From IMG/VR virus record IMGVR_UViG_3300042507_003741, positions 17,602 through 81,601 of that record: DNA of 64,000 bases. One strand, written 5' to 3'. Shown one piece after another: positions 3,971 to 62,328 of this stretch. The translations under genes and the position numbers were made by a program. Origin of the DNA: a virus. The number at the start of each line of letters is the position of its first letter. Within the stretch, counting starts at the first letter, position 1. The notes below the pieces were generated by a model that had not been told where the DNA came from, did no database searches, and worked only from the letters and a program-made list of their open reading frames with translations.

Positions 3971-4482
3971 TTGACTAACTCCTTGAATCGGGCCTCAAAC
4001 AACTCCTTTGCTTGCGTCCAGGAATACGGATTCACTGGCCCGCACGCAGGCTCTACGTCGATCCCCCAGTCGTGCGAGCAGGAGATCAAATCGCGCTTCT
4101 CCGCCATCAACGCCCGCAGGTCTGCCTGCTTTACGTCGGGCGGCATCGGCCACGACAGCCGAAACACGCGGGCTATCGTCTGCTGCACCCGCTCCTCCAG
4201 TTCCCGGTAGCCGGGCAGTAGGTTCTTCAGCGGCGTGGCTACGTCTCCCAAGTACGCCTCGCTGGCATCATGCAGAAGCCCCCACAGCGCGTTCTCTGGC
4301 AGCGTCAAGCGGCTCACCATGACGCTGTGCTGGGCCACGCTGTACGGGCACTTGCTGTGGCCCGTGAATCGGCTGATGAGAGACAGGGCGTGGGAGATGT
4401 CGGGCAGGCGGACGTCCTCCTCGCTGAAGTTCGCGAGGTCGATCAGTTTCCCGGTATACGTCTGCATGGTCGTGGCGTTCAT
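3967..4482 (-). CDS. HD-domain phosphohydrolase (YfdR/YfbR-like 5'-deoxynucleotidase)
   Basis: DISHALS..RFTGH, YSVAQHS, LLHDASEAYLGD; AGGAG RBS. Confidence 0.85.
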   Translation of the reverse strand: MNATTMQTYTGKLIDLANFSEEDVRLPDISHALSLISRFTGHSKCPYSVAQHSVMVSRLTLPENALWGLLHDASEAYLGDVATPLKNLLPGYRELEERVQQTIARVFRLSWPMPPDVKQADLRALMAEKRDLISCSHDWGIDVEPACGPVNPYSWTQAKELFEARFKELVK

Positions 4483-6780: not shown

Positions 6781-8304
6781 CTACCGGGCCGCAGTGGTTT
6801 CCTTTCGCCGCCCCAGTTCCCTCCGCACGGCCGACGTGAATGGCGTCTCCTTCTTCTGGGAGCCAAGCACCCACGAGAGGTATCCCTCCGGGATCGAGTC
6901 CAGAGGAATGCCCTTGTATTTGCCGTACATCATCCGCCAGCCACGCTTCTTCTTGGCCTCCGGCTCGGAGAAGAGGTCGCGGGTGGTGTGATCGAAGTTG
7001 ACGCCTATCAGAAGGCTCTTGCGGCGCTCCCGGCTTTCCAGTGACCGGGCCTCCAGTTCTGCCAACTCAATGGCATCCGCCTCACGAATGGCACTGACGG
7101 CATCCGTGCCCTCCATCGACAGAGAGGCAGACAGTCGGCTGCGGCGGGCGGGCCGCTTCCTGCTCTTTGCGTCCAGGACTTGCATCGCATTGAGCAGTTG
7201 ATGGTTGCGACTGCTGTCGGTGATGTCGTAGATGTTGAAATGAGGCTTGTCGCTCGCCGCGATTGCCGCCAGCCGCTCGTCCCGGCTCATCTCCGAGTGG
7301 ATCGTGCCGGGCAGCGGCCGGGTGCCGCGACCCAGACGCTGCTCGTATCGCGACAGGCTGCGAGTCGGCGCTGCCATGTAGATGTTTCGCAGCGCCGGGA
7401 AGTCCCAGCCGTACCCCAAGATGCCGACGTTCACGATGATCTTGGTTTCACCAGACAGGAAGGCGTCCATGTTCGCCTGCCGCTCGACAATGTTCTGGCT
7501 GCTGTGAACCAGACTGACAGTGTGCTGGTAGCGCTCAAACATGTCGCGCAACTGCACGGCCTGCCGCTTGTTGCATGCGTAGACCACCGACGGCTGCTGC
7601 TTGAAGGTTGACAGGACAAGGCCCGTCACCTCCTGCGCGAAATGCTCTGCCGTCATCACGGCTGCCAACTGGGACGTGTTCCACTCGCCGGCCTCGTCTT
7701 CCACGAGGGACAGGTCGAAACTCTTGGCCTCGCTGAGAAAACACTTGGGGCCGACCAGATACCCGTCGCTGATGCCATCCAGCAGCGAATACACCACCTG
7801 CGGGCGAGGCCAGTATCGCAATGCCTTGCCCTTGCCCTTGTAGGGAGTGGCCGAGAATCCGACGATGGTCGCCCCTCGATTTTCAAACCACTGGAGCATC
7901 TCCTCCATGCGTGGCGTCATGCCGACGTGGCACTCGTCCACCAGCACCAAAGACACACGCTCGTACGCCTTCGCCTTGAACCGGCTGCTGGAGAGCAGGC
8001 TGTCCCGAGAGCCGACAATCACTCTGCGGCGCAGCCCCTCGATGCTCTCCGCAAAGTTCCCGCCCTGCTCGATGTCGCACCGTTCTCCCAGACGCAATTC
8101 CAAGCGGTCCCGGCCCTGACGCATGAGGTCAAGAAGCGGCACCACCTTCAGCGGGTATCGTGCGATGCGGCACAACTCGGCCATCACCTCTGTCTTGCCG
8201 GAGCCGACCGGCTGGCAGACGACGATCCGCTTTTGGCCTCGCTTTGCGGCCCGGCACACAGCCTCGACGGCGGATCGCTGATAGTCACGAAGGGAGATCG
8301 TCAT
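6781..8304 (-). CDS. superfamily 2 DEAD/DEAH-box helicase
   Basis: LRDYQ, PVGSGKT, DECH, SATP, QRLGRGTR; C-terminal GKYKG..IPEGYLSW domain. Confidence 0.9.
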   Translation of the reverse strand: MTISLRDYQRSAVEAVCRAAKRGQKRIVVCQPVGSGKTEVMAELCRIARYPLKVVPLLDLMRQGRDRLELRLGERCDIEQGGNFAESIEGLRRRVIVGSRDSLLSSSRFKAKAYERVSLVLVDECHVGMTPRMEEMLQWFENRGATIVGFSATPYKGKGKALRYWPRPQVVYSLLDGISDGYLVGPKCFLSEAKSFDLSLVEDEAGEWNTSQLAAVMTAEHFAQEVTGLVLSTFKQQPSVVYACNKRQAVQLRDMFERYQHTVSLVHSSQNIVERQANMDAFLSGETKIIVNVGILGYGWDFPALRNIYMAAPTRSLSRYEQRLGRGTRPLPGTIHSEMSRDERLAAIAASDKPHFNIYDITDSSRNHQLLNAMQVLDAKSRKRPARRSRLSASLSMEGTDAVSAIREADAIELAELEARSLESRERRKSLLIGVNFDHTTRDLFSEPEAKKKRGWRMMYGKYKGIPLDSIPEGYLSWVLGSQKKETPFTSAVRRELGRRKETTAAR

Positions 8305-8623
8305 GCTTCCCTCCTCGCTTCTTGGCCTTCTTGGCACGCTTGGCTGCCCGTTTCCTCTTGCCCGACTGAGGCTCGGCGGCCGGAGCCGACCAGCGGTTGC
8401 TGCAAATGGTCGCACTGCACTCCGGCTGCGGGTCTGCGGCAGGAGCCGGAAACATCTGCGACAGGCGTGCGTCCAGCCGCTGCGCCAGTTCGATCTCCAC
8501 CAGCAGGGCCGGCAGGATCGCCTTGCAAAACCGCACGGCCGTATCGGCGTCCAGCGTCCCCGCCTGTGCGTGAGCCGAGACGCCTTGAGCCAGCGAGATG
8601 TAGCGTTCAGTGTCGGGTGTCAT
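8285..8623 (-). CDS. hypothetical protein
   Basis: ORF track; basic C-terminus. Confidence 0.55.
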   Translation of the reverse strand: MTPDTERYISLAQGVSAHAQAGTLDADTAVRFCKAILPALLVEIELAQRLDARLSQMFPAPAADPQPECSATICSNRWSAPAAEPQSGKRKRAAKRAKKAKKRGGKHDDLPS

Positions 8624-8630
8624 GAGTGAA

Positions 8631-8659
8631 ATGCCGGATGAGAGGACGGCATCCGGCGT
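8631..8659 (-). terminator. hairpin, possible terminator/attenuator
   Basis: GCCGGATG/CATCCGGC stem followed by TTTC on minus strand; roughly positional counterpart of 47153-47187. Confidence 0.35.
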
Positions 8660-8693
8660 GCCGTTGGGATGTGGCCCTGCCCTGCCAAGTTGA

Positions 8694-10358: not shown

Positions 10359-11183
10359 ATGTCCAATAACCTCCCTGTCCTGGTGGAGCGATACCTCCGC
10401 TCCCGATCCGTCAGTCCTGGCTACGCCCGAAATGTCCGTGCCGTCTGCTTGGCCTGTCGCACCATGTCCGTCGATGCAATCAACACGTATCTGCAAAAAC
10501 GAATCGTCGAGGTGGCTTCGATTACCGCAGCGACCGAGCGAGCGATTCTCGTTGGCATCTGGAAGTGGGCCTACGAAACCGAAGTAGTGGATCGACTGCC
10601 ACGCGGAATAGTCAAGATCAAAATCGCCCGGCGTCCGACTCGGGCGTGGACTATAGAACAGTGCTGTACGGCCGTCAAGGGGACTTTCGCCCTCGCCGAA
10701 GAAGTGCGTCGGAAGCGGGTGACAGTCGGCCTTTTTCTGCGGTGCTGGATGCTGCTGGGGTACGAAACGGGCGCGAGGCACGGGGACTTGTGGGAGATGA
10801 GGCAAGAAGACTTCGACCTGGATGCCGGCACCGTCCGCTGGTCGCAGCACAAGACCGGCGAGCCGCACGTCAAGATCATGAGCCGGCCCTGCCTGCTGGC
10901 CGTCCAGGAGATGCTGGAGCGGTCGCCAGACGGTCGCGTGCTGGGTTGGGTGATGTCAAAGAAATCGGGTCATCGGCGGATGCGGAAGTACCTGCGTGAC
11001 ATGAAGTACGCGGGATCCTCCAAGTGGCTACGCCGCAGCGGGGCCACCCACATTGAGATGGAGCATCCTGGCAAGGGGCGGCTGCATCTTGGTCACAAGA
11101 CGCCTGGACTGGCCGAGCGGTGCTATATCGACTGGTCGCAGGTGCGCAGGGACATCCCGTGCGTGCCGTCGCTACTCAAATAG
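10359..11183 (+). CDS. tyrosine recombinase/integrase
   Basis: TGARHGDL (R), HKTG (K), KWLRRSGAT, LGHK, late Y; only convincing plus-strand gene of segment 1. Confidence 0.85.
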   Translation: MSNNLPVLVERYLRSRSVSPGYARNVRAVCLACRTMSVDAINTYLQKRIVEVASITAATERAILVGIWKWAYETEVVDRLPRGIVKIKIARRPTRAWTIEQCCTAVKGTFALAEEVRRKRVTVGLFLRCWMLLGYETGARHGDLWEMRQEDFDLDAGTVRWSQHKTGEPHVKIMSRPCLLAVQEMLERSPDGRVLGWVMSKKSGHRRMRKYLRDMKYAGSSKWLRRSGATHIEMEHPGKGRLHLGHKTPGLAERCYIDWSQVRRDIPCVPSLLK

Positions 11184-14100
11184 GGAGATGGCGCTGGTGT
11201 CCGACTTCCGCTTCTTGGGCTTCTTCTTCTCACCGACCTTTTTCCGAGCCTCGCGACGTTCTCGTCCAAGCGCTCGGGAGACGGCCATCCGCTGCAACGC
11301 CCACTGCGGCACTCCCGGCTGGAGGTGCTCGGGGATGTATGTCTGCTGGAACTCGCGGGTATACGGGTCAATGGACTCCTCGATCTGCCGCACGGCGTCG
11401 GCAAGGGCGTCCTGCTGGGCCACGTCCCGAATCTTGATCCCGGAAAGGGCATTCAATCCGGTCTTGCCGATGCGATGCGAGAGAGGCTGGCCGCCGCGAT
11501 CATCGAGCAGCGAGCGGGCGACGTACAGCGGACGGCCAACGAACGGGGCGGCCTCGATCAACTTCTCTGGGAGAGTCGGCACATCGGCGTACGGGTTGCC
11601 GCTCACCGCACGAGCAATAGCGTCGAGCGAGGATGTCGCTTCGGAGAGCGGGCGGTTGGTGAACAGGTCTTTGCCGAATGCAAACTCAGCCCCCATCCGG
11701 AGGAGCGGGTGCGTCTGCATGGCGATCTGCCGTGCCGTGCCAGACGCCATGCCGCCAATCGTTCCCGGAGTCTCGATCATGTTGATCTGGTCGAAGCCCG
11801 GTGCGTCGATGTCGGTCAAGTAGGTCTGCGTGCCCGGCGCAGGAACGCCGCCGAACACCTCCGGGATCGGGAAGGCAAACTGCGACCGCAGGCCAGACGG
11901 GATGTAGGTGTCCTCGCCCTCGTCCTGCACTGCTTCGGTGGCGCGGATCATTTGCCCGTACCGCCCGCCCGGTCGCTCCGCGAGTTGCCGCAGCACTTCG
12001 CGGAAAATCCTGCTCTGGTACGAGTACCAAGGAAAAACCGCCTTCAGCAGCGATTTCTCCATACCGGATAGGGATGAGTAATCGACGTGGGCGCGTTTCA
12101 TTGCCGCCGCCGCCGCCATCGGATCGTAGCCCTGCTTGAGCAGAGCGATGTACCCAGTGAGCCTGTTCACGCCATCGGTCAGCGAGTTCATCCGCTCGCC
12201 AGCCCGGAGCAGCGGATTGGTCTGCTCGGCCAGCGGATTGCGTTTGGATCGCCAATTGAGGAAGTCCTGCGTGTTCCACCCCTTGCCCAGTTCTCGTCCG
12301 ATGGACGCCATGCTGATCGGGTCGGATCCGATGATGTTGTCCAGCGCCCGCTGGCCTGTGACGCTGGCACTCAAGTCGCTGACCGAGCCGCTGCTGACAA
12401 GGCCGGTGCTGGACAGGTCGGCGTAGAACTGGGCCAGCCCGTCGTCGTTGGCGTAGCGTGGGATGGATGCCAGCGTGCTGCGGAACTTGTCGCTGTCTGG
12501 CCCTTCCATGACCAACGCCTTTGCGGCACGGACGGAATCCAGGTCGAGCGCTCCCTCCAGCCAGTTGCTGATTGCCCCAGAATACAGGTCACGCACTGCC
12601 CGTGAGGGCCATGCCAAGATCGAGCCACGCCACGCCTGCGTGTAGTGGTCCAGCCCCCGCATGAACGCACCGGCCGCCTCGCCCGTGCTGTACAGGTCTT
12701 TGGCACGAGTCAGCCGGTTGATGTGTTCTTCCGGGATGGAGAACTGATTGAGGTTGATTTCGTCGGCGTCCTTGCCAAGCAACTTCGCGAGACGCTCACG
12801 CATCTGCTGTGCGGCACCGACCTGCGGCGTGATGTTGGACAGTGTGCCTTTGGATGGCACGGCGAACACCTGACTGCTTGCGTCGTCGTACGTCTTCAGT
12901 CCAAGACGCTGGATCGCTGTGGGCAGAGAGATGTGCCGACCGCGACCTGTGGTGTCCACCAAGTTGTAGGGCTTGTCTACGGCAAACGTCGCTACGGAGT
13001 CGAGCAGCGTTGTGCCCGTGCCCAACGCCTCGCCTGTGTTGCGAACGTAGGAACCAATCATGTCCGTTGGGTGCTGGCCGAACAGGGGCATCTTCTGCAC
13101 CACCTCGTCAGGCAGTGCATTGAGGACGCGGGCAATCCTGCGGGCCTTCTTCATCGTGACTTTTGGCTGTCCGGAAGCCACGAGCGCGTTCAGTTTATTG
13201 CGGATGTAGTTGGCCGCTGCCTCGTCTGTCTTCAGCGTCCGCTTGGGGCCAGAGACGTTGGTGTCTTTTGACAGGTCGATGATGGTCTGCCGCCCGCCTG
13301 GAACCGACATGGCGTCGGTGCGGCGAAGGGCGTCGGTCGTCATGAACGACAACTCGCTGCCCAGTTTGCGGTTGACTCGGGCCTCCATCTCAAGGGCGGG
13401 ATCGGCCCGGCGAGGCAGGTAGTCGATGCCGTATTTGTCGGTTAGCGGCTCGCCGTTGAGTCCGAGTTCCCGTCGCTCGCCCAGCGATGTGTCCCGCTTG
13501 GAGGCCCACCAGTCGGCGTACTCCTTCAAAGCCGGGCGGCTGGTGACGTACTGCACGTCCTCTGGCTTTCGGGCAGCCGCGCCCTCAAGGTATCGGCCGA
13601 GCCGTTCGTTGCCCTCTGGCGAGAACACCTCCGGGTGCGCTTGCCGGAGGCGAGACAGTTGAGCGGTGTGTTCGGCCGTCGCCGCCCCGCCACCAACCTT
13701 GCGGGCCTGGAAGTTGGCGATGTTGGTGATCTGCTCCTCCGCGTCGATCTTGCCTCCAACGCGGGCGTCGAAGCCAGCAGCCAGACTGCGGCCCGGCAGG
13801 CTCCATCGGTATGCCTGACCGAAGGAATCCAGCGCATCGGCAAACGTGTCGCCGAACCCCTTGCCCAGCCAATCGCCCACGACGAGCGGATCGCCCATCG
13901 GCAGGCCCAAGCCAAAAGACTTGGCGAGCGGCTGGTTGCGAATCTGGGCAAGTTGCGCATCTCCGAGCAACTGGCGGGCAGACTCCTCCGCCGCCTTCGG
14001 GTCGTCGGCGTACTTGATGAGGTCGTCCAGCGTGCCCGCTCTGCGGGCCGTCCTGGTGCCGTATAGCGGCCGACCGACCGTCGCGGGATCAAAGGTACTG

Positions 14101-14660: not shown

Positions 14661-16756
14661 TGTTGTGGTGCTGGGTAACCTGCCACGCCGCGAGCGAAGT
14701 TCGCAGGCCCGCCGATGACATAGTCCGGAGCGCCCCTGAGCGACTGACCGGCCGAGTACGCCCAACTGCCGCCTGCGGAGGCGTGCATCTTTTCCGCTTG
14801 GTCGGGGCTCAGTTTGAGCACGTCTCGCGCAAACGCCAAGAACGCCGGCTTGTCATTGACAAGCGCCCGCAAGTGCGCTTTGACTTCTCGGCTGTTTGGA
14901 TTGATGCCTGCTTGATGCTCCAAGACGATAGCCTGCACCCGCGCAGGGATTTGCGCTGGGTCCATTCCGGACTTTTGCAACACCAGCGTCAGGGCTGCGT
15001 CCCTCTGCTCCGGAGGCATCCTCAAGGCGTCCATGAACTGCGGCATCAGTTGTGACGGGAGGGTGCTGTCTTGCTGCGGCTCTTCCTGGCCGGCTTGGGC
15101 TCTCGCCTGCGCGGCAGCCAGAGCGGCAGCGTTTGCACGCTCACCCATCGCCAAGTCCATCGCCCGCTGGGCGCCACGCGGATTCCCGGCGATGTCATTT
15201 GCCGTCGCCAGCATGACGGGATCGCCTTGACGCACAGCGTCGATCAGCGAGCGGACCGCCATGCCAGGAGCAAGGTTCGGGTTGCGAAGGTCGCGCGTCA
15301 GGCTGAAGTTGGCCTGCCGATCACGCCACGTCTGGTTTTGCAGGTCCGTCAACTGGAACCGCATCTGCTCGTTGATCTCACGCATCTTCGTGAAACCGTC
15401 TGGCGAATTGACAAGCCCAACCAGCGCCTGCTTCTGCTCGGGCGACATCATGCGACCGTAGCGGGCGACGATAGTCCGGGCGAACTCCATCTTTCGCTCG
15501 GGACTCATCTTCGCCTCATTGTCGAGGCGGGCCTGTGCCATCTTCTCGGGATTCGCGGCATACCGAGTGCCGCCCATGGGCGTCCGGACGGTGTCGTACT
15601 TGGTCCCCAGCCGGTCGTGTCGCTCTTTCTCGCGAGCCACGTCAGCGGCCAGCAGCGCACGGTCTTCCGGCTTGGTGCCGTCGTACTGCGACACGTCGAT
15701 GCCGTACGCCTTGCCCATTTCGCGGTGCTGCTCAAAACTCCCCTCGCCGTAATACTCTGCCGCTCGCTTGGCATCTTCCAGGCGGTAGGCTTCTGGCGCC
15801 CGAGAGGACATCGAGCCGTCGGCGTTGAACGTGAACGTGCCGCCGTGAGCAGTCTGCGGCACCTCTGGCGTGTAGACATCGCGCGACATGCCCCTCATCT
15901 GCTCGGGCGTGTACACGCCGGGCTTGAGTCCCTCCGGCAGCGGCTTTCCGGCGGCGCGGCGGGCCTGCGCCAGCGGGCTGAGATCGCTGGGGGAGCCGTA
16001 CGCCGCACGCATGGCAGCCTCGCGGGCGGGAGGAGGCATGTCGCCGTACTTGAATCCGAGATAGTCCTCAAAACTCTCGCCGTGTGCGTGCGACCCGCTC
16101 TCAAACTGCTGACGAACCGCCGCCTTTTCTTGGGGCGACAGCCGGTCAAACACGTCCATGGAAGTGACCTGCTCCTCGCCGGGAAGCGTCCCAGACTCCG
16201 GAGGCAGATTCCATCCAGGCACCGGACTCTTTCCTTCGTATTTCGGAGCCTTGCTGTGTGCGGGCGGCACCGGCATGGCGTCCAGGCCGGTCTTGGGCGC
16301 GGGCACAGGAATGTCCATGTTCAAGACATCCGCCGGCGGCAGGCCCAGCGGGTTCGTCGGGTCGGTCGTGGCGGCAACAGCAGCGCCGGCGGCCTCCGTG
16401 CTTGGCGTCCATGAGTTGCCGCGTTCCCAGTTGCGGGTTGCCGCCGGAGCGGTGTTTGTCTTAGCCACTCTGGCAGTTGCGGTTGGGGCAGCCGTAGGCC
16501 GCGAGTACGGGCTGGGGTCCGGAATCGCGAGCGTCTCCTGCGGGGGCGCGCTCCCCTCTTCCGGCATCAGCAGCGGATCTGCGGCCTGCCGAGTTCGTGC
16601 AGTACGCTCTGCCGCCAACTGACGCTGGGCCGCTTGCAGTTCACGCACCCTGGACGCACGCTCGTCAGCGCGGCGAGCCTCACGCGCCAGATACTGACGC
16701 TTGAACATGTCGGCAAACCCGGCTTCGGCAATGGGCGCAGAGTCCGCCATCGTCAT
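14657..16756 (-). CDS. putative internal virion protein
   Basis: Ala/Gln-rich helical protein; syntenic with 53798-55447. Confidence 0.55.
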   Translation of the reverse strand: MTMADSAPIAEAGFADMFKRQYLAREARRADERASRVRELQAAQRQLAAERTARTRQAADPLLMPEEGSAPPQETLAIPDPSPYSRPTAAPTATARVAKTNTAPAATRNWERGNSWTPSTEAAGAAVAATTDPTNPLGLPPADVLNMDIPVPAPKTGLDAMPVPPAHSKAPKYEGKSPVPGWNLPPESGTLPGEEQVTSMDVFDRLSPQEKAAVRQQFESGSHAHGESFEDYLGFKYGDMPPPAREAAMRAAYGSPSDLSPLAQARRAAGKPLPEGLKPGVYTPEQMRGMSRDVYTPEVPQTAHGGTFTFNADGSMSSRAPEAYRLEDAKRAAEYYGEGSFEQHREMGKAYGIDVSQYDGTKPEDRALLAADVAREKERHDRLGTKYDTVRTPMGGTRYAANPEKMAQARLDNEAKMSPERKMEFARTIVARYGRMMSPEQKQALVGLVNSPDGFTKMREINEQMRFQLTDLQNQTWRDRQANFSLTRDLRNPNLAPGMAVRSLIDAVRQGDPVMLATANDIAGNPRGAQRAMDLAMGERANAAALAAAQARAQAGQEEPQQDSTLPSQLMPQFMDALRMPPEQRDAALTLVLQKSGMDPAQIPARVQAIVLEHQAGINPNSREVKAHLRALVNDKPAFLAFARDVLKLSPDQAEKMHASAGGSWAYSAGQSLRGAPDYVIGGPANFARGVAGYPAPQQ

Positions 16757-40441: not shown

Positions 40442-41098
40442 TCACCGTGTCTCCTTCAAGCCAGAAAGCACGCCGGGCTGCTGCTGTTGGGCGGCTCCAG
40501 CCCCGATCAGTGCAGGCACGGCCATGATGCGAACCGCATTCCGCAAGTGATGGTCGGGGAGGACAAACTCCCGGTCGTGATTGCGGGAACTTCCAGAGAA
40601 CGGCGTGTTGCGGACGTTGTATTGCGGCAACTCGTCGGCAGGCACGTCGATTCGGTAGATCGGCGCCTCCAGGTCGTTGTCGCCCACGTAGTAGTCCAGT
40701 TCGTGCGGGGCGTCTGTTGCCCACCGCCCTGCTGCGCCGGGCGGGTTGGGATCGAACTGATCCTGCATGGCATAGTCCCGCGAGCGCTTCCACTCGGCAT
40801 ACGGAACCTGCTGGCCCCACATGTTCACCGTTTCCGGCGGCTTGTAGTTGAGCGCGGTTTCGCCAACGCGATAGGTCCGCACGTAGCCCTCTGAGGGAGG
40901 CTCGGCGGCACCGATGCGGCGAGTCAGTTCATCGAACCGCTGCTGGTGCAGGGGGTTCCCTTTGTGGTATCCGCCCACAGATCGAGGCGGGGCAGGAACG
41001 GGTGCGGGCGGGGCTGGAGCGCGGACTTGCTCCGCCAACTCCGCCACCTTAGAGGCCCGCCCCAGACGGGCGGCAGCGAGCGCAGCGGGTGTTGCCAT
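40442..41098 (-). CDS. hypothetical protein, possible ADP-ribosyltransferase-like fold
   Basis: RTYRVG, GRWATD, YRIDVP, REFVLP spacing. Confidence 0.45.
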   Translation of the reverse strand: MATPAALAAARLGRASKVAELAEQVRAPAPPAPVPAPPRSVGGYHKGNPLHQQRFDELTRRIGAAEPPSEGYVRTYRVGETALNYKPPETVNMWGQQVPYAEWKRSRDYAMQDQFDPNPPGAAGRWATDAPHELDYYVGDNDLEAPIYRIDVPADELPQYNVRNTPFSGSSRNHDREFVLPDHHLRNAVRIMAVPALIGAGAAQQQQPGVLSGLKETR

Positions 41099-41113
41099 AG
41101 AAATCCCTCACGG

Positions 41114-41124
41114 GATTTATGGCC
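41114..41124 (-). promoter_or_regulatory. putative late-promoter motif GGCCATAAATC
   Basis: Upstream of head operon; flanking GTGAGGGAT shared with 58938 site. Confidence 0.55.
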
Positions 41125-41126
41125 GC

Positions 41127-41270
41127 CTACTTCGCCAACAGGTACAAACCCACGTTGGAGAAGGCGTACCCCAAGTAGGCGACCCCCATGCCGGGATTGC
41201 CCCGCCAGAACTGCTCGGCGGAGACGTAGGCGTAGATCAGCCCCGTCAGTGCTATCAGCCATCCGCTCAT
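41127..41270 (-). CDS. 47-aa membrane protein
   Basis: Hand translation MSGWLIALTGLIYAYVSAEQFWRGNPGMGVAYLGYAFSNVGLYLLAK. Confidence 0.6.
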   Translation of the reverse strand: MSGWLIALTGLIYAYVSAEQFWRGNPGMGVAYLGYAFSNVGLYLLAK

Positions 41271-41367
41271 TCGTCGTACGGGTAACCGTCCTCCGGGTCT
41301 TCGGTGTACGGGCCGGGCTCCGCGTCCTCATGGAACCAGGGGCGTACGTCGGGGTAGGTGGCTTGTG

Positions 41368-41694
41368 TCACTTTTCGACAGTTTCCGTGCCATCGCTCGG
41401 CGGGGCCGGGAGCGGCATCCAGTTAGTGATCCCGAATGAATCCACATCGTCATCGTCCATGCCGCAGAACCGCCACATCACCCCGTCATGCGATGCCATC
41501 TGAGCAAGGCGAATGTCTTTCGGAAACGCTCTTGTGACAGCCAAGACGGCGGCATGCACTTCCGGCAGCCGCTCCGTCACCGGAATCCAGCGCGGCACTT
41601 GCTCCTCCAACTCTTCGATCTCGGCGTGCATCCTCCGCTCCTCTGGCGTGCAGTCGCAGTTCATGGGCTTCTGGTCGCAGATCGGGCAATACAT
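41368..41694 (-). CDS. DUF551-like small phage protein
   Basis: RWIPVTERLPE..VL..ITNWMPLPAPP. Confidence 0.75.
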   Translation of the reverse strand: MYCPICDQKPMNCDCTPEERRMHAEIEELEEQVPRWIPVTERLPEVHAAVLAVTRAFPKDIRLAQMASHDGVMWRFCGMDDDDVDSFGITNWMPLPAPPSDGTETVEK

Positions 41695-41714
41695 CCTACT
41701 TCTCCTCTACGCTC

Positions 41715-41763
41715 ACAGAACCAAGCGATGCAGCGGACGAGACGCTGATCGCCAGCGTTCTCA
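41715..41763 (+). repeat. attC: attC site 1 (49 bp)
   Basis: ACAGAAC-CAAGC-GATGCAGC-GGACGAGAC-GCTGATC-GCCAGC-GTTCTCA: R'', 5-nt spacer, L'' with extra base, L', 6-nt spacer, R'. Confidence 0.85.
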
Positions 41764-42053
41764 CTCATCGACACTAACTGCGGCGCCTTCAACGGTCGGC
41801 TCATTGAGTTCATAGGCCGGAACATCAGCCTCCACCCACCGAATCTGTTTGTCGCCGTCGTTTCCTTCCATGCACTCATACGCAATGTTGGCGGCTTCGC
41901 GACCAGCGTTCTGCCAGCCGTTTGCGGAATAATTGCCATCCTCCGACACGCACACCGCTATGCGAACCCGAATCGTTTTTGCTTCGCTCATTGCCTGTCT
42001 CCTGTTCTTGTGAGAACCACGCGATGCAGCGGACGAGCCGCTGATCGCTGGCG
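41758..42053 (+). mobile_element. gene cassette A (296 bp)
   Basis: Start G/TTCTCAC is the reverse complement of own R'' GTGAGAAC. Confidence 0.8.
41761..41991 (-). CDS. cassette A hypothetical protein (76 aa)
   Basis: MSEAKTIRVRIAV...; AGGAG RBS; TGA lies in R' of attC1. Confidence 0.7.
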   Translation of the reverse strand: MSEAKTIRVRIAVCVSEDGNYSANGWQNAGREAANIAYECMEGNDGDKQIRWVEADVPAYELNEPTVEGAAVSVDE

Positions 42054-42059
42054 TTATGC
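42011..42059 (+). repeat. attC: attC site 2 (49 bp)
   Basis: TGAGAAC-CACGC-GATGCAGC-GGACGAGCC-GCTGATC-GCTGGC-GTTATGC. Confidence 0.9.
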
Positions 42060-42323
42060 GGTCGGGTACTTCTTCTGAAACTGCTCGTACGTCATCGCGT
42101 CCCCTTGGCCGCCGACGCCTGTTGCGATGAATGACCCGCGCGATACCCGGATGGATTTCACGCCCTTCAACTTCTTCCGGCCGGTGAACTCGCGGTATCT
42201 GATTGCTGACCAGCCCTTGCCTTGGCAGTGGATGCAGACCACAGCCTCCCCTTCGCCTTCGCACATGCCGCGATACAGGCCCGCCCCATGGCATTCGTCG
42301 CACTCACACTTGATGTCTGGCAT
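42054..42323 (-). CDS. cassette B protein with DnaJ-type Zn-finger repeats
   Basis: CDECHGAG, CIHCQGKG; GGAGG RBS; TAA formed by first three cassette bases. Confidence 0.75.
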   Translation of the reverse strand: MPDIKCECDECHGAGLYRGMCEGEGEAVVCIHCQGKGWSAIRYREFTGRKKLKGVKSIRVSRGSFIATGVGGQGDAMTYEQFQKKYPTA

Positions 42324-42392
42324 TTGTCCTCCTGAGTCAACCGCATAACCAGCGGATGAAGCGGACGGCGGGGCCGCCGCTGATCCTGCGTG
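42054..42392 (+). mobile_element. gene cassette B (339 bp)
   Basis: Start G/TTATGCGGT is the reverse complement of own ACCGCATAAC. Confidence 0.85.
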
Positions 42393-42398
42393 TTCTCA
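42343..42398 (+). repeat. attC: attC site 3 (56 bp)
   Basis: GCATAAC-CAGCG-GATGAAGC-GGACGGCGGGGCCGCC-GCTGATC-CTGCGT-GTTCTCA. Confidence 0.85.
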
Positions 42399-42704
42399 GC
42401 CCAGCCGTTGCAGTATCGATTCAACAGCCACCCTATGCGGCTCATACATGATCGTCGGAAGCATCCGACGGAGCGCCTCCCGCTCCGCGTCGGTGAGCGT
42501 GGGCTGCGGCTCGCGGTAGAGCGACTGCACTGCCATGTCGCCCGCAGCAACCATCTCTGCGTCAGGCCGGTGCAGAAAAAAGTCCGCGTGGTCAGTCCAC
42601 TCAACCATCCACGCCACCGGCTGAGAACCACGCGATGCAGCGGACATATCATCTACCTCGTCTGCCATGGTTGCTCCTGTGTTCGATGCCGCTGATCGCT
42701 GGCG
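42393..42704 (+). mobile_element. gene cassette C (312 bp)
   Basis: Start G/TTCTCAGCC is the reverse complement of own GGCTGAGAAC. Confidence 0.85.
42396..42668 (-). CDS. cassette C protein (PVAW / LTDAERE module)
   Basis: RBS AGGAG and ATG lie inside attC4 loop; stop in R' of attC3. Confidence 0.7.
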   Translation of the reverse strand: MADEVDDMSAASRGSQPVAWMVEWTDHADFFLHRPDAEMVAAGDMAVQSLYREPQPTLTDAEREALRRMLPTIMYEPHRVAVESILQRLG

Positions 42705-42710
42705 TTCTAA
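42622..42710 (+). repeat. attC: attC site 4 (89 bp)
   Basis: TGAGAAC-CACGC-GATGCAGC-(49 nt)-GCTGATC-GCTGGC-GTTCTAA; arms identical to attC2. Confidence 0.88.
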
Positions 42711-42940
42711 TTGGTCCGCTCAAGCAGGCCGTCGATCACGGCGGCGACCTCCACACTGTCGGCAAACCGCCCCGCGAAGTAGTCTTCTCGCACTCGCCGC
42801 AGCACCTTCCTCAGCGACTCCCGCTCCTCGTCGGTGGGCCGCAGGCGTGCGACCTCCGCCTCTAACTGCTGCACTCGCTCCATCGCCTGGATTAGTGCAT
42901 CCAGATCGTCAGGCATCATCGGCGGCACAAGATCACTCAT
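42707..42940 (-). CDS. small protein with TDEERE..GLLERT module
   Basis: AGGAG RBS; TAG stop in R' of attC4. Confidence 0.65.
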   Translation of the reverse strand: MSDLVPPMMPDDLDALIQAMERVQQLEAEVARLRPTDEERESLRKVLRRVREDYFAGRFADSVEVAAVIDGLLERTN

Positions 42941-42970
42941 GTCTGTCTCCTTTACGTTGAAATCACGCAA

Positions 42971-43201
42971 TCACTTCCTGTCGATCACCTTGCGTAGCGT
43001 GTCGGCATCCCGTCGCCGCTCGTCCCCCAGTTGCTCAAGCCTCTCGCGCAGAATGGAGTTCACGCCGCGCAGCCGCCATATCTCGTCTACCAGCGGATCG
43101 GCGCCGGTAGCCCAATGCAGCAGCCACGCCGATCCAATGAACGACGCCGGGATGAGTACGGCCAAGGAGAACCACGCATACCAAGGCATTTCGTTAGGCA
43201 T
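42971..43201 (-). CDS. small membrane protein
   Basis: Hydrophobic N-terminus plus coiled coil. Confidence 0.55.
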   Translation of the reverse strand: MPNEMPWYAWFSLAVLIPASFIGSAWLLHWATGADPLVDEIWRLRGVNSILRERLEQLGDERRRDADTLRKVIDRK

Positions 43202-43922
43202 TTGTTGTCCTCTCCAGAAGGCCGTCCAGCACCGCCGCTATCTCGTCGCACGCCACATCGCCAACGTCGGCGTAGGCGTCGCGTACTTCACGCAGGACGA
43301 ATCGCTCCGCGTCGGTCAGCGTGAACGGCGTCAGCGAGCAGTGAAGCGTAGTGCGGCCAACAACGTGGGGGCAGGTCTGCGGGGTGCGGTAGAGCGGGAC
43401 GACCTCCCCGTCGTTTTCGTCCGCTGCCGCGTCGGCGTGTTCGCGGTGCAGCGAAACCATCTGCCATTCGTCGGAGTGTGCCAGCCACGCCACCGGATCC
43501 TGTGTATTGTGCCCCCGCCCACCCGCCGCCTCGCCGGTGCCGGGCCGCGTAACGTCTAGGGGCCGCCCCTCGCCGCTTCCATCGCTGGAGGCCGGTGGCT
43601 GCGCTATCGCAGGCGAGGAGCCATCTGTCTCCACGCATGGTGGAGCAGTCTGATTGCCGGTGCCCAACACGGGTCGCGTCACGGGTTTATCAGTCCCGCC
43701 GCTGCCGCGTCCTTCAGACGCATGAACGCCTGTTGGCAACTGGACTCTCGCCGCCGGCGCGGCGTCATGTTCGGTTCGCTCCCGCTCGCGGAGCATGGCG
43801 TCGGCCCAGCGGTAGGCAGCCGTGAGTAGGTGTTCCCACTGCAATGCAGTTGGGTACTGATTGGCCTCGTCTGACAGCAGCCCGGTCAGGGCCGCAGCGG
43901 CGAAGTGGTCACGGTCTGTCAT
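43194..43922 (-). CDS. modular phage protein (RDHFAAAAL / PVAW / LTDAER modules)
   Basis: MTDRDHFAAAALTGLL..AY..ADAML; C-terminus related to 42396-42668 and 42707-42940. Confidence 0.65.
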   Translation of the reverse strand: MTDRDHFAAAALTGLLSDEANQYPTALQWEHLLTAAYRWADAMLRERERTEHDAAPAARVQLPTGVHASEGRGSGGTDKPVTRPVLGTGNQTAPPCVETDGSSPAIAQPPASSDGSGEGRPLDVTRPGTGEAAGGRGHNTQDPVAWLAHSDEWQMVSLHREHADAAADENDGEVVPLYRTPQTCPHVVGRTTLHCSLTPFTLTDAERFVLREVRDAYADVGDVACDEIAAVLDGLLERTTNA

Positions 43923-44146
43923 GTCTTGTCCTCCTCGTTGGCCCACAGCATTGCGGCCTTCTCGTCCCAGCAGTCAGCCCGTCCCATGTCGAACCAGTGC
44001 GGGAAATGTCGCAGCACAGCCCGCGCCTCTTGGCGAACCTCCGTGCGGATCCCCTTGATGCCGCCCTCCACATAGACGTTGGAGAGCCGCACCAGGAAGT
44101 CGCGGGCACGGAGGACCGCTAGCGTTCGTTCACACGGGAGGGTCAT
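43919..44146 (-). CDS. BPSL0761-like small protein
   Basis: MT.P.ERT.AVL..RDFL..VRQEAR..LRHFP. Confidence 0.65.
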   Translation of the reverse strand: MTLPCERTLAVLRARDFLVRLSNVYVEGGIKGIRTEVRQEARAVLRHFPHWFDMGRADCWDEKAAMLWANEEDKT

Positions 44147-44421
44147 GGCCACCTCGGGTACAGGAGGCAACCTTCATTGGCGTAGCCGTTCATCACTTCG
44201 ATGGCGGAGATCCGCGGGAACTCCTTGGCCATCTCCTTGGCAATGTCCTCGCCAGGCAGCATGTCCAGCCGCTGGCGGTGGGCTGCCACCCAGGCTTGCA
44301 TCTTGGCCATGTCATCGCCGTGCGTCGGGCCATGCTCTTTCCTCTCAACCCAGGTCCGAATGACATGGTTGAAGGTGCGGAACTTTAGGATGTTTTCCCA
44401 GATCACTTGTTTGCCAAACAT
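44143..44421 (-). CDS. hypothetical protein
   Basis: ORF coupled to downstream gene. Confidence 0.55.
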   Translation of the reverse strand: MFGKQVIWENILKFRTFNHVIRTWVERKEHGPTHGDDMAKMQAWVAAHRQRLDMLPGEDIAKEMAKEFPRISAIEVMNGYANEGCLLYPRWP

Positions 44422-44427
44422 TACATC

Positions 44428-45069
44428 TCACCCCATGTGCTTACGAGTTTTTGCTGGAGCCTTTGCAGCTCGGCCTCCAGCGTCCGGATGCGTCTTCGCA
44501 ACGTATCGTTCTCTCTCTTCAGTCTCTCCTCCTCCTGCAAGGAAGGCTTCGGTTGGTCCATCTACTAGGTCCAGATAGGCGTGCGGGTACAAGAGGTTGA
44601 TCAACGAATCGGCCGTACGGAGGTGCGCTTTCGGGGCGACGAGGACCGGCACCTCATGCCCACGGCCGCGGTCAAACGTAACGGCCTCTGTCCAGCTCTC
44701 GTCACGGTCCAGGATGGTGAGCCACACCCACTTGCCAGTGGGCTTCGACAGGTACACGTAGATGAGGTTCTGCGTGGACTCCATCTCAAGGCCGCGCAGG
44801 TCATCGACAAAAACCGTGTCGTAGGGATAGGACTCCGGATCATCGAACGACAGGCTCCGCTCCTTGATCTCAATGGAGAACAGCCCAAGGGCGTCAGGGG
44901 TTTCAACATGTCCAGTTTTCCTGCAATGCTGTTTGACAACTATCTTCTTGCCGTGAGCGACCGACCGTCCGCTGGTCCGCATCGCCTCCACCCATTTGCG
45001 TTCGGCCGCCTGGCCTTTAACGAGTGCCGACTGGAATGAACGCATAGTCGTTCCAAAAGGAGTAGACAT
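44428..45069 (-). CDS. PD-(D/E)XK nuclease-like protein (start uncertain)
   Basis: G..AE, TPD..IEIKER. Confidence 0.55.
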   Translation of the reverse strand: MSTPFGTTMRSFQSALVKGQAAERKWVEAMRTSGRSVAHGKKIVVKQHCRKTGHVETPDALGLFSIEIKERSLSFDDPESYPYDTVFVDDLRGLEMESTQNLIYVYLSKPTGKWVWLTILDRDESWTEAVTFDRGRGHEVPVLVAPKAHLRTADSLINLLYPHAYLDLVDGPTEAFLAGGGETEERERYVAKTHPDAGGRAAKAPAKTRKHMG

Positions 45070-49247: not shown

Positions 49248-49270
49248 CTAACCAACTGAGCTAGTTGCCC
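49248..49270 (-). other. tRNA 5'-end-like fragment, candidate att core
   Basis: GGGCAACTAGCTCAGTTGGTTAG resembles acceptor strand plus D arm; ~80 bp upstream of recombinase. Confidence 0.45.
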
Positions 49271-49351
49271 GAAGCTCTGGAAATACCCCTTATGCTGGGG
49301 CGCCCAACCGTGCGAGGCACCGCGGCAATTATCCCCGGCGGGAGATACACC

Positions 49352-50179
49352 ATGACTTTGCTGGAGCTTGCTCGCCTCTACCACAACCGCGTGGGAGGAT
49401 CCACAGGATACCTGGAGCAACTGGAGGTTTTCGTCAGGCGACTGGACTGGCAGGCCAAAGACTTGCATCCCGACCGCATCGACGCCTACCTGACGGACGC
49501 CCTGAAGCATCTTGCTCCCTCCACCGTTCGCAACCACAGGAAAATGCTGCGTTGTCTGCTGCATTTCGCCGCCTCCGAGCGACTTGTGGACGCCAGTATA
49601 CTCAGGCCACTCAGGCGTGTCAAGCAGATTCCCCCAAACCCGAGGGCGTGGAGCCATGCGGAGATTCGTTCGCTTCTGGCGGCAGCCGCGAATCTGGCTG
49701 GTGGGCGCAAATGCCCGCGAGCCACGCTGGCACGGGCGTGGATCCTGGTGGCTTACTCCACCGGCCTGCGTCTGGATGACTTGCTTTCGATCAGGCATGA
49801 CCAAATCCGTGGCCAACGTCTCTGCCCCAGTCAGCACAAGGTGGGATGGCCCCATGTCTGCTGGCTGGATGACAATGCCCTGGCAGCCATACGACAACTG
49901 CCGATCCTTGGGCCGCGTATCTTTGGCGACCTGATCTGCCGAGACAAGGTGATGGCCCTGATGCGGCAGATCCGAAAGGCTGCCGGACTGCCTGGCAGCA
50001 CTAAGTTTCTGCGGCGATCAGGGGCGACCTACTGCGAAATCGCCGGGAAAGACGCCACTGGACACTTAGGACATAGAAGCCCTGGCATGAAGGCGTACTA
50101 CGTGGACAGGCTCTTGCTGGCCGAGGAGAAGCGGCAGGAACCTACGGCGCCACCGCTAGAACTGGTTGAGAGCCCCTAG
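49352..50179 (+). CDS. tyrosine recombinase/integrase (second copy)
   Basis: STGLR..DL, HKVG, KFLRRSGAT, LGHR, YYVD; GGAGA RBS. Confidence 0.85.
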   Translation: MTLLELARLYHNRVGGSTGYLEQLEVFVRRLDWQAKDLHPDRIDAYLTDALKHLAPSTVRNHRKMLRCLLHFAASERLVDASILRPLRRVKQIPPNPRAWSHAEIRSLLAAAANLAGGRKCPRATLARAWILVAYSTGLRLDDLLSIRHDQIRGQRLCPSQHKVGWPHVCWLDDNALAAIRQLPILGPRIFGDLICRDKVMALMRQIRKAAGLPGSTKFLRRSGATYCEIAGKDATGHLGHRSPGMKAYYVDRLLLAEEKRQEPTAPPLELVESP

Positions 50180-59704: not shown

Positions 59705-62328
59705 CAGCTTGCCCCCGCAACTGTCATGGAGTGGAGCTGCACGGTGCCCGTGGACTGCGTTCCAGACAGGGCAATCGCCACATGCCGATCACCACCGGCA
59801 CTCATCTCGTCCACTCGGCCGGACATGCTGACGCGGGCGTACCCCGTCGCCTGGCCAAGAGCGCTGCGGTCGGAGGCCATGTTAAGCGTGGCGACTGACG
59901 AGCCGGTAACGACAGTCACGCCATCCCCGCGGTCGGCGGCAACGGCATTGGTGCGAGCGACGGTGGAGTTGTTGTAGTGCAGGCCAATCGCCAGCGACTC
60001 AGGCGTCGGCGTGTACAGTATGCCCAGCGAACGGTTGCCCTTCTCGTCCACCAACGGACGCGGAGAGCTGCGATAGAGCCACGGCACGGCGGTAGTGCTA
60101 CCGGAAGTAGTGGCATCGACACGCCCGCCAGGCTGAAGGATTTTGCCTGCCTCGCCGCCGTACAGCACCGTCTGCCGCTGGCCAGCAACGGACGCAGCGG
60201 CATGCGGGAGCGCCTGCGGGAACGTCTCCTCCCACCACGCCTGCGTGGACAGCGAGTAGCACAGCGCCCGCTTGGGGTAGATCCCATCCGTGGACTGGCA
60301 GTAAAAGAACCGGATGACCCGCTCCTGCGGGCTGGCCTTCACATAGCAGTATTTGCGCTTGGTGAAGTCGATGATGCCGTCACGCCAGTAGTTGTCGATG
60401 GGGGCCGAGATGGCCTGCTCCTGTGACCCGTCGAAGGCGTAGACCCCATAGTCATCCGCAATAAACGCCACGCCCCCAAACACATCCCAGCACCGGGAGT
60501 TCATCGCCCCGCGGTAAGACACCAGCGTGATCGACGCATCGATGATCGGCTGACTGACATACTGCAAGCGGTATACATGCCGGTTCTGGGCAATCAGCAT
60601 GGATCCGCCGAAGGGAATCAACGCCACAATCGCATCGGAGTCGATGGCGTTTTCCTGCACCACCAGCTCGTTGGATTCGGGCACCGACTCGGGCTCGTCC
60701 ACCTCGGAGTAGTAGAGGCTGTTGGGCTTGCTGCCGGTGGTGTCCACGGCATACCAGGCCCGGTCCTGGAACATGCAGCCAACGGCCATGGTCTGCGGCG
60801 GCGGGTCGAACCGACGAGCGTTGACCTGGCCGCTGGGAAGGACAATCGGCATCAGGCCGTAGACGCTGCTGACGTTCGACGCAACCGTATTGCGGTCGGT
60901 GTCCAGCAGGTCCAGGTCCGTGAGGGTGTCCACGTAGGATGTGGTCGTAAACTCGCCTCCCACCTTGTCGATTCGGGCCACCCGGTACAGCACCACCGAC
61001 TGATCGGCGGTGGTCCGCCACAACTCAATCGCATGCACCCGGCTCTCCATGCCTTGGTTGTTCAGCGACCAGGTGAGCGACTGGAGGCCAGTGGTGGCAT
61101 CGATCTCCTTCAGTTCGGAGATGGAACTTGGGATCGGGCCGCCCTGAGACTCGGGCGTGTCATCCAGGTAGCGGATGCAGCACTGATAGATCCCTTTGAT
61201 AGTGGGGGCGACCACTGCAAGGGCCTTGGCGCTGGTGTCAGCAATGGCTGCCGTGGGCGGGAGTGAGTATCGACCGCCCGCCAACACCGTCACGCCAGTG
61301 ATCTGCCCGGCGGAGTTGATGGCGCAGGTCGCTGCCGCACCGCCACCCAGGTAGTCCTGCGGATGAGGGTAGAACGTGATGACGGGCGGAGACATATACC
61401 CCGTGCCAGAGTTTGCCACCGACACAGAGTGAACGGAATACTCTAGGATGGGCCTGGCCGACGCCTGCGTGGTCGCGCCTCCTCCGGTAAGCGAAACCGT
61501 CACTCCGGTGGCCGTGGCACCTGTCCCTCCCGCCAGAACATCGGCACCCACCACCACCTTGTCATCCGTGTCCACGCCAACAACAACATTGGCGCCCGTC
61601 AGGCCCTGGGTGTTGTGAAACGTGACCGTTGGTGCCCCGGTGTAGCCAGATCCGACAGAGAGGAACTCCAGGCCCACAAGGCTCCCTTGGACGTTGCAGG
61701 TAAACGCAGCGCTACTGCCCTGCCCGCCGACAAAAGACACCTGCGGGGCGGCCGTGTATCCCGTACCGCGGTCGGTTAGCCGCACGCCGCTGACCCGGCC
61801 GTTGGCGACCGTCACCACTGCCGCCGCTGACGTTGTCGCCCCGCCACCAGTAAACGCGGCCCCCGGGACGCTCGCGTAGCCATTGCCGCGGTCGATGACC
61901 TGCACTTCGGCAACGTAATACTTCTGCCCCGAGGTCGATCCGACAGGGGCGGCAAAGCTCGCCGGCTTAGAGATGCCCAGCGGTTCCAGGTATGGCGTCT
62001 CGCCGTCCCAGCGGAACCCACGGCCGTGGCCGTCCACGCCGTACATGTCATGCCGGCCTTTGAAGAACGTCACGGGCCGGGTGCCGGCGAACGACAGGAC
62101 GCTAGCGGTGGCTGCTGCGGCGCCGGCTGAAAACGAAACGGTCGGGGCCGAGGTGTATCCCGTGCCGGCGTTGGTGATGAGCACGCTCTGGACCATGGTG
62201 CCGGCCATCTGGGCGACCGCCGCGGCGCCAGTCCCGCCGCCACCGGAGATGGTCACGGAAGGCGCAGAGCCATAGCCGCTGCCGCCAGAGCCCACCGTCA
62301 CCTTGACCACCCCAGAACCAAGCTGCAT
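59704..62328 (-). CDS. tail hub/nozzle-like protein (second copy)
   Basis: [21 protein letters not shown]; GxGY repeats. Confidence 0.7.

Follow-up and report, generated by a model that had tools for sequence, protein, structure and literature searches.

Four copies of one imperfect palindrome separate single small genes of a lake-water phage, and these copies are probably genuine attC-type sites, i.e. folded single-stranded DNA (ssDNA) hairpins of the integron kind, in an array that has no integron integrase (IntI). They lie within 1.0 kb of an 81.6-kb contig, IMG/VR record IMGVR_UViG_3300042507_003741. The window, which is the whole stretch of DNA analysed here, comprises 64,000 nt (record positions 17,602-81,601). 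Window coordinates are used unless "genome" is stated, and L-numbers and G-numbers denote the loci and the bacterial genomes of this analysis, respectively. Integrons are known as bacterial devices. To our knowledge, reports of attC clusters borne by phages amount to a handful to date. An attC cluster without an integron integrase is termed CALIN (IntegronFinder 2.0, PMC9024848). The lack of an integron integrase had been proposed in a first-pass annotation made from the sequence alone, and this proposal held: the TIGR02249 model scored above its cut-off in none of 30 phage contigs, namely this contig and 29 others that bear such arrays. Since the phage has no IntI and at least two attC-type sites, the array is classed as a CALIN (four sites within 1.0 kb) and not as a complete integron.

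All genes between 41.3 and 43.2 kb lie on the minus strand (the gene strand below), and the palindromes fill gaps between them, at 41719, 42015, 42347 and 42626 in plus-strand numbering. The motif is absent from the rest of the 64-kb window, with 0.21 matches expected by chance. A covariance model (R1), which was built from 54 distinct sites, recognised all four on the gene strand. The sites and the cassettes between them are the following.

41712-41766, minus strand: site 1, a 55-nt attC-like site; crossover 41757/41758; R1 score 71.3 bits; ssDNA fold of -12.4 kcal/mol with a bulged base.
41758-42053, minus strand: cassette 1, a 76-aa gene (41761-41991) plus the core of site 2; ends complementary over 8 nt.
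42008-42062, minus strand: site 2, a short attC-like site; crossover 42053/42054; R1 score 71.1 bits; fold of -14.1 kcal/mol, an 11-bp stem with a bulged C.
42054-42392, minus strand: cassette 2, the gene (42054-42323) of an 89-aa Cys-rich (CxxC) protein plus the core of site 3; ends complementary over 10 nt.
42340-42401, minus strand: site 3, of the 62-nt class; crossover 42392/42393; R1 score 50.2 bits; fold with a bulged T.
42393-42704, minus strand: cassette 3, a 90-aa gene (42396-42668); ends complementary over 10 nt.
42619-42713, minus strand: site 4, of the 95-nt class; crossover 42704/42705; R1 score 55.4 bits; ribosome-binding site and start codon in the loop.

Read along the gene strand, each site begins where the stop codon of the upstream gene overlaps (G)AAC. 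A 4-nt spacer leads to the first arm, GCGATCAGCGG; after the loop comes the second arm, CCGCTG[C]ATCGC, in which one C is bulged, and a spacer of 3 nt separates this arm from GTT. The 4-7 nt that follow can pair with the 3' end of the next gene, of which they are the reverse complement. Thus the TGA stop of cassette gene 1 overlaps the AAC box of site 1, and the TAA stop of cassette gene 2 sits in that of site 2. The loop between the arms is 5-6 nt long in the short sites and 49 nt in site 4. Site 3 has an additional 4-bp stem in its loop, and its bulged T stands immediately 5' of CC in the 3' arm. The first-pass annotation described one geometry for all four sites (AAC, 5 nt, 8-nt L'' with an extra base, loop, 7-nt L', 6 nt, GTT). 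This layout was seen in sites 1, 2 and 4, the last being a 95-nt variant, but site 3, a variant of 62 nt, departs from it in having one mismatched pair in its L stem. The same annotation suggested folding of the bottom strands; as ssDNA, sites 1-3 do fold into a hairpin with a bulged base.

No family match was obtained for the genes of cassettes 1 and 3 in searches of family libraries. The protein of cassette 2 gave sub-threshold matches only, to Anti-TRAP (E 0.0012; 19.3 bits against a cut-off of 32) and to phrog_8027, phrog_6060 and phrog_4046 (E 0.0016-0.0048). Together with the DUF551 phage protein encoded after the array, these results agree with the earlier suggestion that the cargo consists of phage genes and not of bacterial cassette genes.

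The two ends of each cassette pair with each other. The reciprocal flank pairs that had been noticed earlier, GTTCTCAC/GTGAGAAC (8 nt), GTTATGCGGT/ACCGCATAAC (10 nt) and GTTCTCAGCC/GGCTGAGAAC (10 nt), are all present. To see how general this pattern is, complementarity was counted from the triplet outward in 156 unique adjacent site pairs from about 120 loci. The flank after GTT and the flank before the AAC of the next site are complementary over 7.54 nt on average, and over at least 7 nt in 80% of the pairs. The mean was 5.06 nt for the two flanks of the same site, 5.03 nt for outer flanks and 4.96 nt for random pairs, which reached at least 7 nt in 18%. Every gene is therefore bracketed by pairing ends of its own, which is the footprint of an inserted circular cassette with a single site. 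It had also been supposed that one ancestral site received all three cassettes of the window. However, the outer flanks (AGAAC/GTTCT) pair over 5 nt only, and since this is no better than chance, a single ancestral site is unsupported.

The site family is widespread among phages. An exact-pattern scan of IMG/VR found it in at least 118 phage contigs, and the model search yielded about 300 sites in about 120 loci, with all sites of one array on the same strand. They fall into length classes of 55 nt (152 sites), 62 nt (31 sites) and 95 nt (119 sites). The largest arrays hold 14 and 15 sites per locus, and the median cassette body is 290 nt. The longest open reading frame (ORF) was on the bottom strand in 105 of 160 unique cassettes and on the other strand in 7, the remaining 48 being ambiguous. 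Because the phage cassette genes are on the bottom strand, each site precedes its gene rather than follows it. The 95-nt class occurs in two forms: in one the stem is extended, and in the other, to which site 4 belongs, the loop contains AGGAG and ATG and the ORF runs on through the 3' arm. In cassette 3 of the window, accordingly, the gene takes its AGGAG and ATG from the loop of site 4, and its codons continue through the 3' arm of that site. Many of the 119 sites of this class carry a ribosome-binding site and start codon in the loop, so that different downstream proteins open with a similar short peptide. The peptide shared by such loop-start sites (window 42619-42713; L020, L038, L039, L047, L073 and others) is M..E.N.EMSAASRGS, part of which is encoded by the 3' arm. 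A variant site was also seen in which GAGACAGCCA replaces the usual GAGAACGCCA and the AAC triplet is lost (L004 13914-13967; L023, L034, L053, L057, L067, L113, L115 and L118). It is the first site of the array wherever the context is visible, and may be a dead boundary site that has lost recombination.

Comparison of related arrays places the exchange point at one side of the site. When the same gene has differing downstream neighbours, 42 of 50 unique pairs lose homology 1-3 nt past the C of AAC. Similarity of the site core was 0.83 when the downstream gene was shared, 0.62 when only the upstream gene was shared and 0.65 in unrelated site pairs, which indicates that the core travels with the downstream gene. 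The clearest case is that of L041 and L047, whose phage backbones are 69-72% identical. The two loci share three cassettes (351, 317 and 348 nt) at 100% identity, arranged as 27-28-29 in one locus but as 29-27-28 in its counterpart, and the partner switches directly after AAC at every junction. A further seven cassettes recur at 93-99% identity in arrays that are otherwise unrelated, and one cassette is present twice in L039. Cassettes have thus been transferred between divergent phages and re-ordered. Since homology ends after AAC and the L041/L047 junctions agree, the crossover was placed at AA|C of the gene strand. This corresponds to G/TT on the plus strand, at 41757|41758, 42053|42054, 42392|42393 and 42704|42705, and these are the crossovers and the three cassettes that the first-pass annotation had defined. 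It had also proposed that breakpoints of gene content in relatives should fall at G/TT; both the order changes and the replacements break directly after the AAC of the gene strand.

The sites agree in most respects with the published definition of attC. According to Nivina et al. 2016 (PMC5027507), the bottom strand of attC is cut between A and C of the AAC in R', the extrahelical L'' base is at position 16 and is usually G, the stem has 6 bp, and a conserved T is found at position 23/24. The same study gives central spacers of 5-6 nt and an attC length of 57-141 bp; the AAC triplet itself is reported to be unimportant and conserved for micro-homology during strand transfer, and the extended flanks are stated as a consensus only. 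On the gene strand, the phage sites read AAC, 6 nt, 7 nt, loop, 8 nt with a bulged C, 5 nt and GTT. Counted from the 3' end of that strand, the bulged C is at position 16, the stem has 6 bp and a T is at position 23; this T forms a bulge in sites of the 62-nt class and in 95-nt sites with an extended stem, and 55-nt sites have it in the loop. With the boxes drawn as in the first-pass annotation, the spacers measure 6 and 5 nt, but two of their bases pair and lengthen the L stem. AAC and GTT stand at the expected offsets in 274 of 302 sites, and the polarity of the breakpoints agrees with the gene strand being the bottom strand of attC. The stem is also conserved as a structure: compensatory changes were found in 9 of 11 L-stem pairs, and 105 cells changed on both sides as compared with 14.3 in shuffles, in an alignment that was fitted to the model. 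One A-T pair of the stem has become T-A in 10 sites and is mismatched in only 2.

The same site family is present beside intI in bacterial chromosomes. It was found in 7 of 121 Pirellulales genomes, in some of them on contigs of more than 230 kb. In genome G150, contig C155 carries a full-length intI at 10505-11446 on the plus strand (TIGR02249 404.7 bits, cut-off 265), and two sites of the family lie on the plus strand 1.8-2.6 kb upstream of it, at 7913-7976 and 8593-8686. Toxin-antitoxin-like cassette genes are on the minus strand between and beside the two sites. These strands give the canonical layout, in which the genes are on the top strand and point away from intI and the sites are on the attC bottom strand. 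A second case is L198, a canonical integron of a Steroidobacteraceae genome, in which intI is accompanied by at least 18 attC sites whose sequence type is different. The L198 site at 4129-4182 shares the exact hairpin of the phage family (R1 50 bits, E 4e-13) and the polarity of its neighbours, and it lies immediately downstream of a HigA-like gene. The planctomycete genomes G030, G034, G137 and G149 likewise contain intact intI genes. The phage and its probable host therefore appear to share one gene-swapping system.

Several observations speak against reading the palindromes as attC sites of a shared host system. The bulge at position 16 is C and not the usual G of integrons. The flanks deviate from RYYYAAC/GTTRRRY, the commonest being TGAGAAC, ACAGAAC and GCATAAC on one side and GTTCTCA, GTTCTGT and GTTATGC on the other. 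From R box to R box the classes measure 49, 56 and 89 nt, so the short class falls below the range of 57-141 bp. The host is probably a Pirellulales planctomycete, but this assignment is indirect, and the intI contigs of G030 and G034 had no family sites within the stretches examined. Spacers and loop of the short class are linked to neither flank and give background values; this class cannot place the crossover, and the placement rests on the long-class sites and on L041/L047. The core before the DUF551 gene differs at about 5 positions from that of L031, whose structural genes are 98-99% identical, which indicates that some exchange or conversion probably occurs inside the conserved core as well. 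Finally, the cassette circles that the first-pass annotation had suggested looking for in reads were not seen: Logan contigs of four lake runs contained no circular cassette and gave only short-sided joints. These joints (e.g. 41738>42034, 42055>42347 and 42057>42626) were not counted as excision, because their sides are shorter than 31 nt, some have intervening letters, and they may come from other genomes.

Could the hairpins instead be intergenic elements that act at the RNA level or in regulation (processing or stability) and spread genes by homologous recombination? Such a role is known for the PeSL of T4-type phages, whose promoter and terminator motifs act via homologous recombination (Arbiol et al. 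2010, PMC2839356; PMC4122927). Like PeSL, the sites described here are repeated intergenic stem-loops that flank small accessory genes in plastic phage regions and mediate shuffling. A site stands in every intergenic gap of a one-strand operon, contigs break there as at any repeat, the unlinked short-class cores are what homologous exchange within a repeat would leave, and the 11-bp hairpin is also found singly between conserved bacterial genes. Unlike PeSL, however, the phage sites have no match to a promoter or terminator: nothing promoter-like was matched in 40500-44000, there was no gene-strand terminator at the sites, and Rfam scans of the region and nine related loci found no family for the hairpin. 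Homologous exchange would also leave unexplained the complementary ends specific to each cassette, as well as breakpoints 1-3 nt after AAC between unlike cores. Furthermore, the sites of the bacterial integrons are on the strand opposite the genes, so that the cassette transcript there carries the reverse complement of the hairpin in the phage transcript. We regard this explanation as very improbable. A double-stranded Xer/dif-like core (11-bp arms with a 5-6 nt centre) was likewise set aside, since many sites have a loop of about 49 nt and the breakpoints are at AAC and not at the centre; no Y1 transposase of IS200/IS605-type elements was found on the contig.

If the palindromes are attC-type sites, the recombinase has to be sought outside the array. 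The first-pass annotation left open a host IntI acting in trans or a recombinase of the phage itself. Of these, the host IntI is the better supported because the site family adjoins a true intI in bacteria, and we lean towards it, while the phage enzyme is still a live competitor. The candidates for the latter are two compact tyrosine recombinases:

10359-11183, plus strand: YR1, in phage segment A; Pfam Phage_integrase 30.6 bits; candidate only.
49265-50179, plus strand: YR2, in phage segment B; XerD/XerC models E 2e-7 to 1e-6; 275 aa from the likely start; candidate only.

A self-contained "phage integron", with attC-like, mobile sites recombined by this YR1/YR2 family, would fit the occurrence of a tyrosine recombinase in 23 of 29 array-bearing contigs and, among the 13 of these with a completeness of at least 90%, in 11. 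YR1 and YR2 are about 29% identical and occupy the matching syntenic slot in both phage segments, as orthologues. Each (about 275 aa) is the only plus-strand gene of its block and lies between an exonuclease gene and the gene of a virion protein of about 1200 aa; a conserved motif of YR2 is TKFLRRSGAT. YR2 is 78-87% conserved in relatives (L004-L010), and judged by sequence the family keeps the invariant Arg, Lys, His and Tyr typical of tyrosine-recombinase active sites, although it lacks an arm-binding domain. On the other hand, YR2 does not look like an IntI. TIGR02249 gave no match, and profile and fold were closest to lambda Int, Tn1549 Int and XerA, with IntI 23rd in the fold ranking, as for a generic tyrosine recombinase. 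When the single sequence was compared with solved structures there was no match, and the profile found lambda integrase only (E 0.006). Neither gene adjoins the array, YR2 being 6.5 kb and YR1 about 31 kb away, and no tyrosine recombinase is encoded on two array-bearing contigs of 92% completeness. Tyrosine recombinases are moreover common in temperate phages, and the site family itself stands beside a true intI in bacteria. Recombination by the phage enzyme is thus unlikely, though far from negligible. A third site-specific recombinase of the contig, a serine recombinase (Pfam Resolvase E 3.5e-28), is encoded outside the window at genome 14484-15359 on the plus strand (L129).

In gene-strand order, the mobile unit consists of the site core, GTT, 4-7 nt, the ribosome-binding site, the small gene with its stop, the complementary 4-7 nt and AA. 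In a circular cassette, an intermediate that we infer from the paired ends, the two ends would meet and pair to form the R box of one complete site. Exchange would take place between A and C of the gene-strand AAC, the gene strand having the layout of the recombinogenic bottom strand of attC. Cassettes would in this way be cut out, re-inserted and passed among co-infecting or resident phages. As a wider and tentative proposal, to which we give slightly less than even chances, planctomycete lake phages keep a "backwards" cassette pool of their own and borrow the IntI of the host to trade genes, so that host integron and phage accessory genome form one exchange network. In such a pool the attC before a gene would often supply its ribosome-binding site, its start codon and a short N-terminal peptide.

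CALINs have been described in phages by Qi, Rajabal, Ghaly, Tetu and Gillings (2023, PMC9892861), who found 17 phage clusters and showed that IntI1 recombined 5 of 6 phage sites tested. The array of the window resembles them in that at least two attC-type hairpins separate single genes on a replicon without intI. It differs from them in belonging to one homogeneous family with arrays of up to 15 sites across at least 118 phage contigs, in carrying small phage-type genes on the attC bottom strand behind a site whose loop can hold the gene start, and in sharing its family with the attC sites that integrons of the probable host order contain. Compared with sedentary chromosomal integrons, the structure of the sites, the AAC/GTT boxes, the bottom-strand A/C crossover, the ends that pair as an R box, the stop codons in that box and the high similarity of sites within a lineage are all alike, and the family itself is present there (G150 C155 and L198). 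In contrast, the phage has no intI, its genes are inverted, its flanks depart from RYYYAAC/GTTRRRY, and its cargo consists of phage genes rather than of toxin-antitoxin or metabolic cassettes. A literature search of incomplete coverage found no description of the site family, of the inverted orientation or of the link to planctomycete integrons.

One attC family thus connects the chromosomal integrons of an environmental bacterial order with large arrays in at least 118 lake-phage contigs, and the comparisons provide direct evidence that cassettes have recently moved between divergent phages. Some of the mosaicism seen among small accessory phage genes could accordingly have a site-specific mechanism. 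A clear prediction is that a planctomycete IntI should recombine the sites on the coding strand. The cassette pool is also a defined place in which to seek small phage genes of fast turnover, such as candidates for counter-defence.

The setting of the array differs from what had been supposed. The first-pass annotation placed it inside a phage early region. However, the contig is probably a chimera of two related phages, A and B, joined at or just past site 4, and the region upstream of about 42.9 kb is probably a second phage that was joined by the assembler. The tetranucleotide AGCT does not occur in genome 1-62066 (up to window 44466) and occurs 42 times beyond. The helicase, ERF, exonuclease, recombinase and large virion genes are each present in two copies, which are 27-35% identical and have the same gene order. 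Genome positions 1-232 and 60573-60804 match at 97.8% identity, and this repeat suggests that phage A is a circle of about 60.57 kb. In four lake metagenomes, unitig depth is uniform over 40800-42642 and different from 42924 onward (ratio of the two depths 0.25-2.5), and the switch falls between 42642 and 42924 in all four runs. The array is therefore probably part of phage A, and the helicase/ERF "early region" upstream of it part of phage B. The phage B relatives L004 and L010 have arrays of their own directly after the helicase gene.

A chimeric contig raises the question of whether the array itself is an assembly artefact, in which unrelated fragments were joined at a repeat. The signs of chimerism just given speak for it. 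Against it, the unitigs over 40800-42642 have equal depth in each of the four runs. They include single unitigs, 41712-42038 and 42030-42376, that hold both ends of cassettes 1 and 2, respectively, at the depth of phage A, so that the end pairing of these two cassettes is independent of the assembly order. The pattern also recurs in about 120 independent loci, and where junctions diverge directly after AAC, the sequence in common is too short to have caused a k-mer mis-join. An artefact is hardly credible on these grounds, even less so than a purely regulatory role of the hairpins. Many metagenomic phage contigs end about 50-250 nt from a site (L004/L005, L030-L033, L040, L052, L066, L071, L077 and L086). 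Site arrays are systematic breakpoints of assembly and are probably under-represented in assembled viromes. A blastn search of 40500-44500 against 50,697 isolated phage records gave no match.

The genes on either side of the array are:

41368-41694, minus strand: DUF551 gene, 108 aa (Pfam DUF551 E 2.7e-10), a conserved backbone gene directly after the array.
42707-42970, minus strand: 87-aa gene directly before site 4, its first 42 residues 93% identical to the L010 gene 14969-15094.

Many arrays of relatives also stop before a homologue of the DUF551 gene, at GTTCTGTGAGCGTAG. The DUF551 protein of the window is 98% identical to that of L031. A comparison of L031 102-497 with window 41368-41766 shows that this strain, whose DUF551, 366-aa and capsid proteins are 98-99.5% identical, has another last cassette. 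The L010 gene that matches the 87-aa gene stands between two array sites of that locus (14721-14817 and 15092-15186). The gene of cassette 3 ends in a module ...TDAEREAL... that is common to neighbouring genes (family D4). Three adjacent small genes in 42396-43946 have this C-terminal module, ...(L/P)TD(A/E)ER...L, which is visible in the DNA as a 27-nt repeat at 42472, 42813 and 43294. The shared module suggests domain-level shuffling in addition to the shuffling of cassettes.

The same 11-bp hairpin with a bulged C (GCGATCAGCGG...CCGCTGCATCGC) is also found as single copies that lack AAC/GTT boxes in bacterial metagenome-assembled genomes, both of Burkholderiales and other groups (L136-L140, L144, L149 and L152) and of Planctomycetota (L132, L133, L143 and L153). 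In Burkholderiales it lies between the gene of a periplasmic amino-acid-binding protein and a permease gene, in planctomycetes beside a FabH-like gene, and in L151 in a different context. These single hairpins may be chance occurrences among GC-rich hairpins, or may represent a shared hairpin that is bound by a protein.

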